IMG/VR virus record: IMGVR_UViG_3300009177_000023
Location: 1 to 36,695 of that record
DNA length: 36,695 bases
From: a virus
Direction: 5' to 3' (one strand)
In this document: in pieces, positions 1,677 to 33,186 of the stretch
Layout of the letters: every line of letters starts with the position of its first letter
Numbering within the stretch: position 1 is the stretch's first letter
Translations under genes and position numbers: made by a program
Notes under the pieces: generated by a model
Database searches by the model: none
What the model saw: the letters and a program-made list of their open reading frames with translations, nothing else
Told to the model about the DNA's origin: nothing

Positions 1677-2028
1677 AATGCCGCCCGACGACGAGATCGA
1701 GCTGGACATCTCGGAGCTGATGCCACCGCCCGAGCTGGACCCGTTCGCCGACGACGTGCCGACGCTGGTGGACCGCCTGCGGTGCCTGTGCCCCGGCTGC
1801 GGTGACGATCAGATGCACCTCGACGACAGCGTGCAGCCGCCGGGCTCCCACGCCGAGGCCTGGAAGCGCGGATGCTGCTACGGGAATTCCAAGTTCTTCT
1901 GGTGCAAGGGCCCGGTCGAACGGCGCGGGATCGGCCAGCTCACTTTGATTGGGTCGATGGAGGTCTTTTTTTTTCCTGACCGGCGTCTGGCCAGCCGGAA
2001 GGTGGACGTCGACCGCCGCCGGCCGTGA
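1669..2028 (+). CDS. Hypothetical acidic Cys-rich protein (CLCPGCG, CC, C)
   Basis: GTG 1669 (or ATG 1678) overlaps the upstream stop. Contains a T9 homopolymer at 1966-1974 inside the reading frame. Confidence 0.45.
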   Translation: MTEMPPDDEIELDISELMPPPELDPFADDVPTLVDRLRCLCPGCGDDQMHLDDSVQPPGSHAEAWKRGCCYGNSKFFWCKGPVERRGIGQLTLIGSMEVFFFPDRRLASRKVDVDRRRP

Positions 2029-2040
2029 TACCGTTACGGC

Positions 2041-2424
2041 GTGCCGACAGCCAGCAATCTACGTAAGGACGCGCAGGCCGCGCGCGAGAAGGCCAAGAAG
2101 CTCCTGGCCTTCGCCGATGCCCTGGACGCGGCGGCGGACGCCCAACAGGGCTTGCGGACCCGTAACGGTTATGGCACGGTGCCAAGGATGGAAACAACCG
2201 TTACCCAGCCCCCCAAGGTTCCCAGGAAACGCGGCCCGGCCGCCGCTGCCGATGGCCCCATGACCGCCGTTGCAAAGCAGAAGGGAATCCCAAGCCTCCG
2301 CGCGCTGGGCGATGCGCTGGGCATAACTGCCGGAAACGTCAGGCTTATCAACCTGCGTGGCGTGATTCCTCCTGGCGTGCAGAAGAAAATCGACGCCCTC
2401 CCGAACGCCGGCACGACCAAGTAA
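2041..2424 (+). CDS. Helix-turn-helix DNA-binding protein (candidate repressor or origin-binding protein)
   Basis: The C-terminal segment GIPSLRALGDALGITAGNVRLINLRG is HTH-like. High GC3 from GTG 2041. The gene is flanked by and contains GTAACGGTT/AACCGTTAC sites. Confidence 0.55.
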   Translation: MPTASNLRKDAQAAREKAKKLLAFADALDAAADAQQGLRTRNGYGTVPRMETTVTQPPKVPRKRGPAAAADGPMTAVAKQKGIPSLRALGDALGITAGNVRLINLRGVIPPGVQKKIDALPNAGTTK

Positions 2425-2449
2425 GAACGTAACGATTTCCTGCTGTTGT

Positions 2450-2468
2450 GGAAACCGTTACGGTTTCC
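2450..2468. promoter_or_regulatory. Perfect 19-bp palindrome ggaaaccgt-t-acggtttcc (operator or iteron candidate)
   Basis: The reverse complement of ggaaaccgt is acggtttcc. The site is intergenic, between the HTH gene and the next ORF. Confidence 0.7.
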
Positions 2469-2480
2469 GTTGACGACGCG

Positions 2481-2504
2481 GTAACGGTTCAATATAACCG
2501 TTAC
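2481..2504. promoter_or_regulatory. Perfect inverted repeat GTAACGGTT-caatat-AACCGTTAC (operator or iteron candidate)
   Basis: Two 9-bp arms with an AT-rich 6-bp spacer, ending 1 nt before ATG 2505. Confidence 0.75.
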
Positions 2505-2666
2505 ATGTCCAACGCGACGCCGGTTGAAATCGAGGAAGAGGAAACGGTCCCGGTTCCTTCGCAGACGATGGCCGAGATGGACCGCGAGCGCTGGCGCAGG
2601 CTTTCCGACCTGTACCACGAGGAAGAGATCCCCTGCGCGCCCTTCGGGGTTTCGGGGATGTACTGA
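2505..2666 (+). CDS. Small acidic hypothetical protein (53 aa)
   Basis: ATG 2505 lies directly after the palindromes. The track start at GTG 2448 would translate through both palindromes, so the later ATG is preferred. Confidence 0.4.
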   Translation: MSNATPVEIEEEETVPVPSQTMAEMDRERWRRLSDLYHEEEIPCAPFGVSGMY

Positions 2667-3375: not shown

Positions 3376-4290
3376 ATGCTCAAGATCACCAAGGCCGCCG
3401 ATCCCATCGAAGTGAAGCACGTAGTTGTCTGAATCCACGGAGACCCCGGCATCGGGAAAACATCCCTCGGGTTCACCGCCGAGAAACCCCTGTGCCTGGC
3501 GTTCGACAGCGGCGTGTACCGCGCTGGCGCCTTCCGCGGGGACTGCGTCCAGATCGAAAGCTGGCGCGACGTCTCAAACATGACCGCCGCCGACTTCGCC
3601 GGCTACTCGACGGTGGTCGTTGACACCGCGGGACGCGCCCTCGATTGCCTGTCGGCGACGCTGATGGCCGAGGATCCCAAGAACAACCGCGGCGGCGCGC
3701 TGTCGCTGCAAGGGTTCGGCGCCCTGAAGAGCACCTTCTACGGGTGGTTGTCGAACCTGAAGTACATCGGCCTGGACATCGTGCTGATCTGCCACTCGGA
3801 CGAGCAGCGCAAGGGCGACGAGCTGATCACCCGCCTCGACATGCAGGGAGCCTCGAAGAACGAGGTGTACAAGAGCGCCGACATGATGGGCTCACTGTCG
3901 ATGGTGAAGGGCAAGCGAGTGCTCAACTTCAGCCCCACGGACGTGGCGTTCGGCAAGAACCCTGGCCAGCTCCCAGTGCTGACCGTTCCTGACTTCGTTC
4001 CCGGCGCGCCCTCGGGGTTCTTGGCGAAGGCGATCGCCGACACGAAGGAGGCCCTCAATCGCCTGTCGGCCGAAGGCATCGCCCAGGCCGCCCTTCAGAC
4101 GACGTGGGCCGAACGCATCGGCAAGGCGAGCACCAAGGCCGAGTTCGACGCCCTGGCAGCGGCGGGCAAGGCAGAGGGCGCCCCCAAGGCCGTCGGTGCG
4201 CTGCTAACGAAGGCAGCGAAGGCCAAGGGCTTCGCCTGGGACAAGGCAGCCGATGCGTTCGCGCCCGTCGCCGAGAAGAAGGCGGCGTGA
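3376..4290 (+). CDS. AAA_24/Sak4-like RecA-fold ATPase (recombination), interrupted by an in-frame TGA at 3430-3432
   Basis: ATG 3376 has an AAGGAAAG Shine-Dalgarno. Translation gives MLKITKAADPIEVKHVVV*IHGDPGIGKTSLGF (Walker A), then VVVDTAG (Walker B) and DIVLICHSDEQ. The track ORF 3514..4290 lacks Walker A. Confidence 0.7.
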
Positions 4291-6663: not shown

Positions 6664-7343
6664 CCCCCGCGGAACTGGCGACAGTCATCGAGAGCCACCG
6701 CAAGTGGCGATTCGGTGAAGAGGGCGGATCCCGCGCCGACCTGAGCGGCGCCAACCTGAGCGGCGCCGACCTGAGCGACGCCTACCTGAGCGACGCCAAC
6801 CTGAGCGACGCCAACCTGAGCGGCGCCGACCTGAGCGGCGCCAACCTGAGCGGCGCCGACCTGAGCGACGCCTACCTGAGCGACGCCAACCTGAGCGGCG
6901 CCAACCTGAGCGGCGCCGACCTGAGCGGCGCCGACCTGAGCGGCGCCAACCTGAGCGGCGCCGACCTGAGCGACGCCAACCTGAGCGGCGCCAACCTGAG
7001 CGCGATCCGTGAGGACCTTGTCCAGGTGCTCAACGCCGCGCCGGCCGAGGTTCCGGGGCTGTTGGCGGCCCTGCGCGCTGGCAAGGTCGAAGGGTCCACG
7101 TACGAGGGCGCCTGCGCCTGTCTCGTCGGGACCCTCGCCAACGTCCGCGGGTGCTTTTACCGCGAGCTGGGCGCCTTGCGTCCCGACCCGGACCGCCCCG
7201 CCGAACGGTGGTTTCTCGCCATCACCGAGGGCGCCAAGCCCGAGAACAACCAGGTCGCGAAAATCACCGAGGGTTGGATTGTCGAGTGGCTGGCCAACGG
7301 CCCCGCTGCCGTCCAGGCGCCGACCGCCGAGGTGTCCGCGTGA
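6660..7343 (+). CDS. Pentapeptide-repeat protein (possible DNA mimic) with a Cys-containing C-terminal domain
   Basis: 18 consecutive A(D/N/Y)LS(G/D/A) pentapeptides, followed by ...[24 protein letters not shown]... Confidence 0.85.
6735..7004 (+). repeat. 18 tandem 15-bp units GCC-(G/A/T)AC-CTG-AGC-G(G/A/C)(C/G), near-identical at the nucleotide level
   Basis: Read directly. Only the first base of codon 2 and the last two bases of codon 5 vary. All synonymous positions (GCC, CTG, AGC) are invariant. Confidence 0.9.
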
Positions 7344-8479
7344 TCCGCTGGCTCGGCACCAAGAAGGTCAAGCTCGCGACCATCGTCCTGCCGGGCGGGT
7401 TCGCGAAGCGGAAGAAGGAGCAGCACGTCCGCGACCTGGCGGCGTCCATCGAGCGCGGTGGGGTGATCAGTCTGCCCGTGGTGCAGGACAAGCCCCGCAA
7501 GCTGGTGGCAGGCGGCGACCGACTCGCGGCGCTGATGCTGAACAAGGTCATGTCGCACGAGGTGCGAATCGTCCGCGGCACGGCCCAGGAGCTTGAGGAG
7601 CTGATGCTGGAGGAGAACCTCCTGCGCCGGCGCAGCGACGACTATGCCGCGATGACCAAGCGACTGGTGGAGCTGCGCACGGGGGACATCGAGGCGGCCG
7701 ACCGAGCGGAGGTTGTCGCCGAGGAGGCGGCCGGTCGCGCCATCATTGAGCGCTTCCTGGAGGAAGCCGTCGACGACGGATTACTGGTCGCCGCGACCGC
7801 AAATGACGAGCCCGCCCCGGTGGGCCGCCCCAAGACGGCGAAGGGCAAGGCCCGCGAGCAAATCGCGAAGGAGACGGGCAAGACCCCCGAGGCCATCCGC
7901 CAGGCCGAGAAGCGGGCGGTGGCGAAGGAGCGAAAGGCCGCGGAGCAAGAGCAGAACCCGTTCACCGACGCCGGGGAGCCGCTCGCGCCACCGGTCGAAA
8001 CGTACGGACTGCCCCTATTGACCGCCGAGGACGCCTACCAAGTCGTCATGGCCCAGGCTGCCCTTGAGAAGGTGGAGGGGTTCCTGAACAAGGCCCTGGC
8101 CTCCGTCGCGAACCACGCCGGGGCCGACTCGCTGGCGGCGCGCATCTGCAACGACGTTATGGCCGCGCTGGGCAAGCTCGCCGTCGACGTGCGCGCCGCC
8201 TACCCACGGGCCGTCTGCGCGGCCTGCAAGCTCATCCCGGCGCGCCGGGCGAAGTGCAAGGCCTGCGCGTCGACGGGCTTCGTGGGCGTGACGGAGTGGC
8301 TCAACGCTCCCGACGAGCTGCGCCTGGGCGGTGACCAGGCGAAGGTCTCCGACGGCAAGGGAGGCTTCATCCCCTACGCCCGTGAGGTCGCGAAGGAAGA
8401 GAAGGCGGCCGAGCGGAAGACGGAACGCAAGCTGCGCGTCGAGCTGGACGACGGCACCGTGTTCGAAGGGGGCGCGTAG
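7340..8479 (+). CDS. ParB N-terminal-domain-like protein with a C-terminal CxxC...CxxC cluster
   Basis: GTGA overlap at 7340. [15 protein letters not shown]...[22 protein letters not shown]...[11 protein letters not shown] resembles the ParB/Srx fold. The C-terminus carries [17 protein letters not shown]. Confidence 0.6.
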
Positions 8480-10226: not shown

Positions 10227-10522
10227 ACCAGCGAACGTTCGACGCCGTCGACAACGCACAGGCCAAAGCCCCCGGTGACCTCGACTACCTAGACGTGGCG
10301 CTGATTGAGCTGGATGACGAGCGGCTCCGCTTGGAGGCCCTGTTCCAGCAAACGCACGGTGCGCACTCTAGCTGGGTGGCGGAGGCGGAAAAGCTCCGGA
10401 AGGAACGCGACCTCCTCCGTGGGGTCATCGCCGAAATTCGCGGATGGGCGACCAGTCGCATGACGACCGACAACCCGGGGCCGGCGGAATGGTTACTGGA
10501 AATCACCGCGGTGCTCAAGTGA
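10223..10522 (+). CDS. Hypothetical helical protein (99 aa)
   Basis: GTGA overlap at 10223. In frame within track ORF 10169..10522. Confidence 0.45.
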   Translation: MNQRTFDAVDNAQAKAPGDLDYLDVALIELDDERLRLEALFQQTHGAHSSWVAEAEKLRKERDLLRGVIAEIRGWATSRMTTDNPGPAEWLLEITAVLK

Positions 10523-10965
10523 CCGTCGAGGACTTGCAGCTACTCGGCCCCCGCCAGCGCCAGGTGATGGAGCTGCGCCTGGCCGGCCTCGGGCAGCGTG
10601 AAATCGCCGGCAAGCTCGGCCTCACCGCCAACAACGTGGCTCACCTGGAATACCTCGTGCGCCAGCGCCTGAGCTCGCGTGACGTCCCCCGCCGGCCCTA
10701 CGGCTGGCAAAGCCTCTGCCGCCGTGGCCACCAGAAGACACCGGGGCAGAAGTGCGTCACATGCTGCGCGGCTGCCAACGAGAGCCGACGACAGAAGGGG
10801 TTCGCACGTGCGGCAGCCAGGGAGGCCGCAGAGGCCGCCGCTGAGTCCCCCGAGGCCGCCCGGACCCGCATCGCCTGGGAAGTGTCCACCGGCAAGCGCT
10901 GTGGTCACCAGCTGTTCCGCGGCCCCTGCTGCCTGCTGCGCCCCTGCGCGGACCACGGCCGATGA
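10519..10965 (+). CDS. Sigma-70 region-4 / LuxR(GerE)-type HTH regulator with Cys-rich C-terminus
   Basis: GTGA overlap at 10519. LGPRQRQVMELRLAGLGQREIAGKLGLTANNVAHLEYLVRQRL fits the pattern. The C-terminus contains CRRGH...CVTCC...CGH...CC...C. Confidence 0.6.
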   Translation: MTVEDLQLLGPRQRQVMELRLAGLGQREIAGKLGLTANNVAHLEYLVRQRLSSRDVPRRPYGWQSLCRRGHQKTPGQKCVTCCAAANESRRQKGFARAAAREAAEAAAESPEAARTRIAWEVSTGKRCGHQLFRGPCCLLRPCADHGR

Positions 10966-12850: not shown

Positions 12851-12888
12851 CTGTGATGAGTTGCCAGGCCCGCAACCCGGCGTACAGT
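12826..12888 (+). promoter_or_regulatory. Composite element A: AATTAACGGTCGCACCGACC, 37 nt, then TACAGTCGCC; -35-like TTGCCA at 12861-12866 with a 16-nt spacer
   Basis: Same architecture and spacing as the elements at 19131 and 33124. The -10-like box ends 8 nt before ATG 12897. Confidence 0.65.
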
Positions 12889-19159: not shown

Positions 19160-19193
19160 CTCGAATTGACGGCCTGAAAGGCGCGGGTACAGT
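19131..19193 (+). promoter_or_regulatory. Composite element B: AATTAACGGTCACTACGACC, 37 nt, then TACAGTCGGC; -35 TTGACG at 19166-19171 with a 16-nt spacer
   Basis: TTGACG-N16-TACAGT is sigma70-like. It lies upstream of the major capsid gene with a leader of about 100 nt. Confidence 0.7.
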
Positions 19194-28012: not shown

Positions 28013-28351
28013 CTACTTGCGAACGCCGTAATTGACGTTGACGCGAGGGCGCGCCTGACAGGCCGCAAGCTCCGTCTCAAGCTGCGCCACCTTGGCAGCG
28101 GGATCGACTGGCGGCGCCGCCTGCGCGGCACGCTCGGTCGCCAGGTCGCGGAGAAACTTGTCCGGATCGAAGTCCTTGGAGCCCGCCGTTTCAAGGGCCA
28201 TGCGGAGTCGGGTGTACTCGGCGACGTCGTGGACGTCGGTCACGATCCTGGAAATCGCGCGATAGGCCGGCACGCCCACCGCGATTACCCCCGCCAACGT
28301 CACGACGAGGGTCACTTGTCGAACACGCCTCTCCCACGTCTCAAGGTCCAT
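28013..28351 (-). CDS. Antisense moron: 112-aa single-pass membrane protein
   Basis: The minus-strand ATG at 28351 gives MDLETWERRVRQ-VTLVVTLAGVIAVGVPAYRAI (TM), then a helical C-terminus. High GC3 on the minus strand. The overlapping + ORF 28007..28414 is Arg-rich and looks non-coding. Confidence 0.65.
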   Translation of the reverse strand: MDLETWERRVRQVTLVVTLAGVIAVGVPAYRAISRIVTDVHDVAEYTRLRMALETAGSKDFDPDKFLRDLATERAAQAAPPVDPAAKVAQLETELAACQARPRVNVNYGVRK

Positions 28352-28358
28352 GTAACGA

Positions 28359-28386
28359 ATGATAGCCTCGGCCAATTCGCGGTCAA
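28359..28386 (-). promoter_or_regulatory. Sigma70-like promoter TTGACC-N16-TATCAT for the antisense gene; the -10 box ends 7 nt before the ATG (leaderless candidate)
   Basis: On the minus strand: ttgacc (28386-28381), gcgaattggccgaggc, tatcat (28364-28359), tcgttac, then ATG (28351). Confidence 0.55.
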
Positions 28387-33125: not shown

Positions 33126-33186
33126 TTAACGGTCGCGCCAACCTGTAATTGGCGCGAATTGACGGGGCGATCTTTGCCCGTACAGT
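33124..33186 (+). promoter_or_regulatory. Composite element C: AATTAACGGTCGCGCCAACC, 37 nt, then TACAGTCGGC; -35 TTGACG at 33159-33164 with a 16-nt spacer; includes an 8-bp hairpin cgcgccaa/ttggcgcg
   Basis: Spacing identical to elements A and B. The hairpin at 33134-33156 could terminate the upstream operon. Confidence 0.7.

Follow-up and report, generated by a model that had tools for sequence, protein, structure and literature searches.

The window, by which we mean the whole stretch of DNA analysed here, is a phage genome of 36,695 bp, complete as an IMG/VR virus record, and its 35-bp terminal overlap points to a circular or circularly permuted genome. Almost all of its genes lie on the plus strand, with a single gene on the minus strand, and they encode among others an integrase, a Sak4-like AAA_24 recombinase, a ParB/KorB-like protein (7151-8479), a terminase, and portal- and SU10-type capsid proteins. 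A relative of the Sak4 protein is present in a Myxococcales MAG, and the phage is of high-GC soil origin and probably myxobacterial. The locus described here comprises the gene for a 127-aa protein, the spacer of about 80 bp that follows it and the small gene downstream, with repeated 9-mers, palindromes and promoter elements placed around and inside the first gene (Table 1).

Table 1. Features of the regulator locus (P, promoter; O, proposed operator; positions are those of the window)
Feature	Position	Strand	Details
P_up	2003-2032	+	Candidate promoter of leaderless geometry: TGGACG 2003-2008, 18 nt, GATACC 2027-2032, 8 nt, GTG 2041
Half-site-like 9-mer TACCGTTAC	2029-2037	+	1 mismatch; overlaps P_up -10 box
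Regulator gene	2041-2424	+	127 aa; predicted helix 4-40, disordered linker 41-68, four-helix Cro/CI-like HTH 73-119
P_in	2152-2190	+	Candidate internal leaderless promoter: TTGCGG 2152-2157, 17 nt, CACGGT 2175-2180, 7 nt, in-frame ATG 2188 (Met50)
O_in left half-site GTAACGGTT	2162-2170	+	Codons Arg-Asn-Gly-Tyr; inside P_in spacer
O_in right half-site AACCGTTAC	2196-2204	-	34 nt from left half-site
O1 GTAACGATT	2429-2437	+	One-mismatch copy; 5 nt past regulator stop codon
O2	2450-2468	.	Perfect 19-bp palindrome, directly upstream of P_down -35 box
P_down	2470-2498	+	-35 TTGACG 2470-2475, 17 nt, -10 TATAAC 2493-2498, 6 nt, ATG 2505; conserved in relatives
O3 GTAACGGTT-caatat-AACCGTTAC	2481-2504	.	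Exact 9+6+9 palindrome
First gene of proposed controlled operon	2505-2666	+	53-aa acidic protein; ATG at predicted transcript start

The half-site GTAACGGTT, allowing at most one mismatch, has nine matches in the window against 2.99 expected from shuffles, and none of 100 shuffles reached nine. Eight of the nine fall in 2029-2504, a span of 476 bp. An earlier sequence-only reading of this DNA had described such a cluster near and inside the gene, which is borne out, and it had placed the in-gene inverted pair and both palindromes exactly. Its count of six copies was too low, as there are eight once GTAACGATT at 2429-2437 and GTTACGGTT, an overlapping one-mismatch copy at 2457-2465, are added, and the ACCGTTAC that it put at 2031-2038 lies one base away, at 2030-2037. 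The left half of O3 sits in the P_down spacer, while the right one shares bases with the -10 box and reaches up to the start codon, the palindrome as a whole covering spacer, -10 box and start point. In O2, relatives conserve only the AACCGTTAC half (2453-2461).

Elsewhere in the genome, the Sak4-like gene (window 3377-3432) carries an in-frame TGA at 3430-3432, before the Walker A motif, at a position where relatives have a Cys codon; L014, whose DNA is nearly identical there, has TGC, and Cys is also found in L003, L005 and L022. The stop appears to reflect either one C-to-A nonsense mutation or an error in sequencing, and selenocysteine is conceivable. Recoding of TGA as an explanation for in-frame stops was rejected, because TGA is the commonest stop codon and is used in ATGA overlaps. 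A 173-aa protein (window 10444-10965) has a sigma-70 region 4 / LuxR-type HTH (Pfam E 1.3e-6) and is a further candidate DNA-binding regulator of the phage. In the first 1,100 bp of L026 (1-1100; a Myxococcales MAG), actaattcgaaaaggagatcac occurs twice, both times directly before a gene start, and may be a repeated translation or promoter cassette.

The ORF at 2041-2424 has coding-type GC1/GC2/GC3 composition, with a GC3 of 0.75 that is below that of its neighbours. Its product has no Pfam, PHROG or NCBIfam match, and tblastn against GenBank phages, a search of viral contigs and a word-indexed protein search returned the same phage only. An exhaustive phmmer search, the sole one to find the family, recovered 18 metagenomic homologues of about 120 aa with 39-56% identity; the family alignment (A2) contains no conserved stretch of 7-10 columns. 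These regulators are an unnamed and previously undescribed family for which Pfam, PHROG and NCBIfam hold no model. An AlphaFold model built with the family alignment of 19 sequences (a single-sequence model was uninformative) has a mean pLDDT of 82.9, with the N-terminal helix and the HTH domain above 90 and the linker at low confidence. The top Foldseek matches of the C-terminal domain are Cro/CI/Xre proteins, namely N15 Cro, Xfaso1 Cro, Aca1, ClgR and TP901-1 CI, with probabilities up to 0.96, target TM scores of 0.54-0.66 and non-significant E-values of 0.5-3. A PDB profile search matched two Cro proteins weakly (5w8y, E 0.004; 3bd1, E 0.025), 5 of the 19 family members match Phage_CI_repr below threshold, and sub-threshold P22_Cro and HTH_3 matches also occur among them. 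The HTH nature assumed in the sequence-only reading is therefore backed by the model and by these weak fold and sub-threshold profile matches, while the window protein taken alone has no family match; an HTH protein is a reasonable assignment on moderate evidence. Across an alignment of 12 sequences, the residues of the recognition helix did not clearly track the operator variant.

P_down was found by a relaxed scan, along with other promoter-like sites of the phage; a strict consensus scan missed it because the sixth position of its -10 box is C, not T. Six spacers following the regulator gene are identical in length and align without gaps, and their invariant columns are the stop codon, the GTAAC of O1, the -35 TTG and the final block (A.AAC / A.AACCGTTACATG; A.AACCGTTAC and then directly ATG). 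The form conserved across spacers is TTGACN-N17-TATAAC-N6-ATG, a geometry that recurs in L022, L025 and L027. Overlap of a palindromic operator-like site with the promoter core is present in the family loci whose sequence includes the downstream spacer. No Shine-Dalgarno sequence precedes ATG 2505, and the P_down transcript should therefore be leaderless. The 53-aa product of the first gene has a homologue in L003 (52% identity) that stands behind an unrelated operator set, and the family loci have small ORFs at the corresponding position. As a separate observation, CGTTACATG has two copies in the genome (0.12 expected), one at P_down and one at window 28349-28386 (minus strand), where it lies at a leaderless-type promoter, TTGACC-N16-TATCAT-N7-ATG, of the single minus-strand gene; ATTCGTTAC at that minus-strand promoter resembles the operator half-site with 2 mismatches.

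We compared the loci of eleven family members with the window, giving 12 loci, all metagenomic. In 11 of them all, or all but one, of the matches to the locus-specific 9-mer (at most one mismatch) fall within the gene or the spacer of about 80 bp after it. Most loci with GTAACGGTT have sites near +5, +29, +57 and +72 past the stop codon and, in the gene, at about +120 and +155. A copy resembling O1 lies within 5 nt of the stop codon in L014, L017, L019, L021, L023 and L027, and the 15-nt pair of O3 is kept in place in L017, L019, L021 and L027, with variants at the same place in L018, L022, L023 and L025. The 34-nt in-gene pair is also found in L018 and L027, and L019 has a 37-nt pair. The half-site itself differs between genomes: GTAACGGTT is used in the window, L014, L017, L018, L019, L021 and L027, GCAACGGTT in L020, GCAACGATT in L022 and L025, and GTGACAGTT in L023. 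In each genome the in-gene copy tracks the intergenic copies, so that the right in-gene half-site of L023 follows that phage's own operator variant and the synonymous third base of the Arg codon is CGT with GTAACG and CGC with GCAACG. Homologous phages that kept the gene and lacked the palindromes had been named beforehand as evidence against the sequence-only proposal; the homologous phages keep both gene and sites.

Among whole-genome relatives the closest, G001 (= L003), retains the genes on either side (g1341, g2505 and Sak4) and has at the regulator position an unrelated 165-aa protein with no BLASTP similarity and a weak HTH_3 match. It also has an unrelated repeat, TCGTATCGTSCGTATC, twice over the downstream promoter and once inside the 165-aa gene. 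Since the small downstream protein survives this swap, it is not the binder, and no gene other than the adjacent regulator was seen to change along with the motif. The relatives L004-L007, identified through the gene at 4253, have neither regulator nor motif; in L005 a divergent region with other genes stands instead. Judged from these comparisons, regulator and putative operators move as a unit from one related phage to another, as immunity regions do. The joint replacement in G001, together with the confinement of variant sites to the gene and the following spacer at each family locus, bears indirectly on binding. The 127-aa protein most likely binds the half-site GTAACGGTT as an oligomer.

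Upstream of the gene, the position of P_up matches TTGACG-N17-(AATGAT/CACGAT/AACAAT)-N8-GTG in L014, L018, L020, L022 and L027, and its GATACC version is common to the window, L017 and L025. The latter keeps GATACCGTT upstream of the gene even though its operator is GCAACGATT, and the L017 copy is degenerate. Given this retention in L025 and the shared GATACC promoter, TACCGTTAC at 2029-2037 probably belongs to the promoter and would serve autoregulation at most as a weak half-site. The sequence-only reading had proposed an autoregulatory operator array; the operator part holds, with sites that bracket and overlap a conserved promoter and half-sites that co-vary, but the main target appears to be the promoter downstream, probably together with an internal one, and not the one in front of the gene.

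Some further observations concern this upstream region. A 17-nt sequence, gcgcacccgaggcaccg, forms the spacer of the upstream promoter and is strongly conserved in L014, L018, L020, L022 and L027, whose regulators are only 41-56% identical to that of the window; another factor may bind there. ORF 1669-2028 is in frame with the regulator ORF, with one TGA (2026-2028) between them, and its last ~25 codons, which follow a T9 run at 1966-1974, coincide with the conserved promoter of the regulator and may not be real coding sequence. The gene immediately in front of the regulator in relatives encodes a small nuclease of varying type (RusA, VRR-NUC, HNH) and runs leftward, in every case on the minus strand (L003 3280-3729, L021 1351-1701, L020 708-1019, L022 570-866, L017 552-932), and the position looks like an insertion hotspot for small nuclease genes. 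A classical divergent cI/cro layout was rejected because these leftward neighbours are nucleases, not CI-like repressors.

Inside the gene, the half-sites are embedded in a block of the form TTGNNN-N17-nAnnnT-N7-ATG, in frame, and this P_in geometry is present in 12 of 12 family loci. The coding sequence is constrained here at the DNA level. Leu38 is encoded by TTG in 11 of 11 cases, whereas the other eight conserved Leu columns use this codon 2 times in 77; GGT encodes Gly43 in 8 of 9 sequences and TAT encodes Tyr44 in 9 of 9, despite a GC3 of 0.65-0.85 in the family genes. No member has an indel between the TTG and the conserved Met50, whereas the predicted disordered linker has indels just downstream, and the single homologue with Val at the Met50 position encodes it by GTG. 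The GTAACGGTT copy lies 4 nt past the TTG hexamer in P_in, compared with 5 nt in P_down; the -10 candidate of P_in, CACGGT, is weak. In the unrelated gene of G001 a strict scan gives TTGACT-17-TATCGT (4068-4096); an in-frame GTG follows after 7 nt, and the spacer contains the repeat of that phage. Because the in-gene block copies the layout of promoter and operator, the TTG, GGT and TAT codons and the spacing to Met50 are fixed, Val is encoded as GTG and G001 has an analogue, we read the in-gene pair as probably both an auxiliary operator and part of an internal, self-repressed leaderless promoter that would yield a 78-aa HTH-only isoform.

One might instead take the in-gene copies as a by-product of a conserved peptide motif, RNGY..TV..M, with no DNA-level function, leaving the intergenic sites as the operators. 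The motif is indeed conserved as amino acids throughout the family (RNGY.TV..M), and some protein-level selection is possible, but rare codons are fixed in spite of such GC3 values, and the synonymous CGT/CGC position tracks the operator variant of each genome. The peptide moreover sits in a predicted disordered linker, and the unrelated G001 protein has its own operator repeat in the linker-coding region, so we regard this explanation as unlikely. Binding of the cluster sites by some other phage protein, such as the ParB/KorB-like one, must be weighed against the dispersed copies of a related motif. The motif AATTAACGGTC has 11 matches in the genome against 1.07 expected, 6 in the cluster and 5 dispersed, the dispersed sites being imperfect 27-bp palindromes, AATTAACGGTCG-N3-CGACCGTTAATT. 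Both site classes contain TAACGGT in nearly the same arrangement (TAACGGT-N7-ACCGnTA and TAACGGT-N8-ACCGTTA), and the sharing of this core with the genome-wide motif, pointed out in the sequence-only reading, is real in the window; it does not extend to the relatives L014 and G001. The former has the same regulator specificity, yet its dispersed-type site before Sak4 is GATTTCCGGTC. In G001, by contrast, a similar dispersed-type palindrome is retained (AATTACCGGAC-N5-GTCCGGAAA), as is a conserved ParB-like protein (35% identity), while the cluster motif and the adjacent small protein are both replaced. A scan of G001 for an enriched motif of the dispersed kind yielded weak candidates only. The flanking bases also differ consistently between the two classes, and the cluster sites do not co-vary with the ParB-fold protein in the manner of ParB/parS or KorB/OB. 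On account of the site changes in L014 and G001 we take the two classes to be recognised independently of each other, and consider a ParB-like binder of the cluster decidedly unlikely. Among the dispersed palindromes, three lie about 10-15 nt upstream of TTG(ACG/CCA)-N16-TACAGT promoters (12861-12888, 19166-19193 and 33159-33186), at about -60 from the start point.

A lambda-O-style origin, with the 127-aa protein as initiator and the repeats as iterons partly in its own gene, had been the other suggestion of the sequence-only reading. The likeness to O and ori-lambda lies in a cis site within the linker-coding part of a gene, bound (here presumably) by that gene's own product and varying in sequence between related phages. 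An origin would also agree with the relatively AT-rich 80-bp spacer, with the lack of a recognisable replication initiator among the ORFs scanned, and with a cumulative GC-skew minimum (~863) less than 1.5 kb away. However, ori-lambda comprises an AT-rich region and four direct iterons in phase, and the 299-aa initiator O recruits P; all these features are absent here. The in-gene element consists of two inverted half-sites 34 nt apart rather than at least three phased direct iterons; tandem repeats are absent, the nearest 4 kb contain no DnaA box, neither the protein nor its family matches an O-type or other initiator in Pfam, PHROG or NCBIfam, and the neighbouring genes include no helicase or loader. 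The sites instead fall exactly on conserved -35 and -10 elements, promoter and operators fully explain the AT-rich spacer, and the GC skew is weak and noisy, with a minimum that is not at the cluster, and too weak to place an origin. We thus find replication initiation here very improbable. The slightest chance of all goes to an RNA-level role, in which the palindromes of a read-through transcript would form hairpins that cause termination, processing or a block to translation of the following gene. RNA of 2415-2520 does fold into two hairpins (z-score -3.4), the second abutting AUG 2505, but the 9-mer also occurs singly and in direct orientation (O1/O2 of L019, the in-gene copy of L025) and at spacings from 9 to 37 nt, L019 and L021 lose hairpin 1 yet keep the motif, neither hairpin is followed by a T-run, and the in-gene copies are far apart.

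The operator-array reading is, in our view, strongly supported by the comparative evidence, and we consider it likely that the clustered sites serve as operators for the 127-aa protein, which would repress P_down, with O1, O2 and the in-gene pair adding cooperativity and the in-gene pair serving also as an internal promoter. The full-length protein would be made from P_up and oligomerise through helix 4-40, and its flexible linker of about 30 residues would let the HTH domains take inverted half-sites at 15, 24 and 34 nt. As O3 covers the spacer, -10 box and start point of P_down, its occupancy would block RNA polymerase there and so repress a promoter predicted to start a leaderless transcript at ATG 2505, the early operon of the small acidic protein, the Sak4-like recombinase, the integrase and others. 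O1 and O2, upstream of P_down, may add cooperativity, as may the in-gene pair some 300 bp away, probably by looping, and occupancy of O_in would also shut off P_in. The protein may be the lysogeny repressor, with a role in phage immunity, or a Cro-like regulator that only reduces early transcription; the phage has an integrase, and a homologue (L015) is on a 707-kb contig, probably within a prophage. More tentatively, and short of an even chance, the one gene may be a two-isoform switch, producing the 127-aa oligomeric repressor from the upstream promoter and the 78-aa HTH-only form from the operator-controlled internal leaderless promoter. Without the oligomerisation helix the short form would bind half-sites non-cooperatively and so modulate or oppose the long form, which would amount to a Cro-like activity nested inside a CI-like gene.

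Phage immunity repressors with their operators are among the closest known parallels to the family and layout described here. As in lambdoid immunity regions (CI/Cro with OR and OL; imm-lambda, imm434, imm21), a protein with a predicted Cro/CI-type HTH is paired with palindromic, putative operators over an early promoter, several operators would act together, and regulator and operators are swapped as a module between related phages. The cI mRNA from PRM is leaderless, and the predicted start here resembles it. Unlike lambdoid CI, the domain order is reversed, with the oligomerisation helix first and the HTH last, and there is no peptidase domain; regulator and target operon are in tandem on the same strand, not divergent, and the proposed operators are found within the regulator gene and beyond its end. 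Secondary intragenic operators are familiar from lac O2 in lacZ and gal OI in galE, which lie a few hundred bp away and aid repression by looping. The in-gene pair is likewise a candidate secondary operator that lies within coding sequence at a comparable distance from the main site, but in lac and gal the operator is in a target gene, not in the repressor's own, and it is not within an internal promoter.

TP901-1 CI offers a further parallel. It represses an early promoter through separated palindromic operators, three in all (OR, OL and OD), and consists of a small HTH domain, a flexible linker and a helical oligomerisation domain (PMC7250872, PMC4941734). The same three parts are predicted here, along with several sites, and the CI N-terminal domain is among the fold matches. 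TP901-1 CI has its HTH at the N-terminus, however, forms hexamers via its C-terminal domains and works with MOR at divergent promoters (PMC7250872, PMC4941734), whereas the predicted HTH here is C-terminal and there is no sequence similarity. Two lengths of a regulator from one gene are known for mycobacteriophage BPs gp33, where integration at an intragenic attP makes the forms differ at the C-terminus (PMC4557955); two forms are likewise proposed here, but the short one would lack the N-terminus. A BPs-type attP inside the regulator gene was rejected, because the gene is intact on the contig that holds L015.

The work defines a hitherto unannotated regulator family together with its proposed operators, a target promoter and at least four specificity variants, and so offers candidate repressor-operator pairs, orthogonal to one another, from phages of soil that are rich in GC and probably myxobacterial. 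A further yield is a case of coding sequence shaped by overlapping regulatory DNA, in which rare codons and spacing are fixed within a predicted disordered linker. A promoter nested in a repressor gene, perhaps giving a truncated isoform, would, if true, add a compact type of lysis-lysogeny circuitry and show that a linker motif conserved among small regulators may be the imprint of a DNA element and not a protein motif. As the same design is seen in the unrelated regulator of the sister phage, the two-isoform arrangement, if it holds, may be a recurrent solution in myxobacterial phages.
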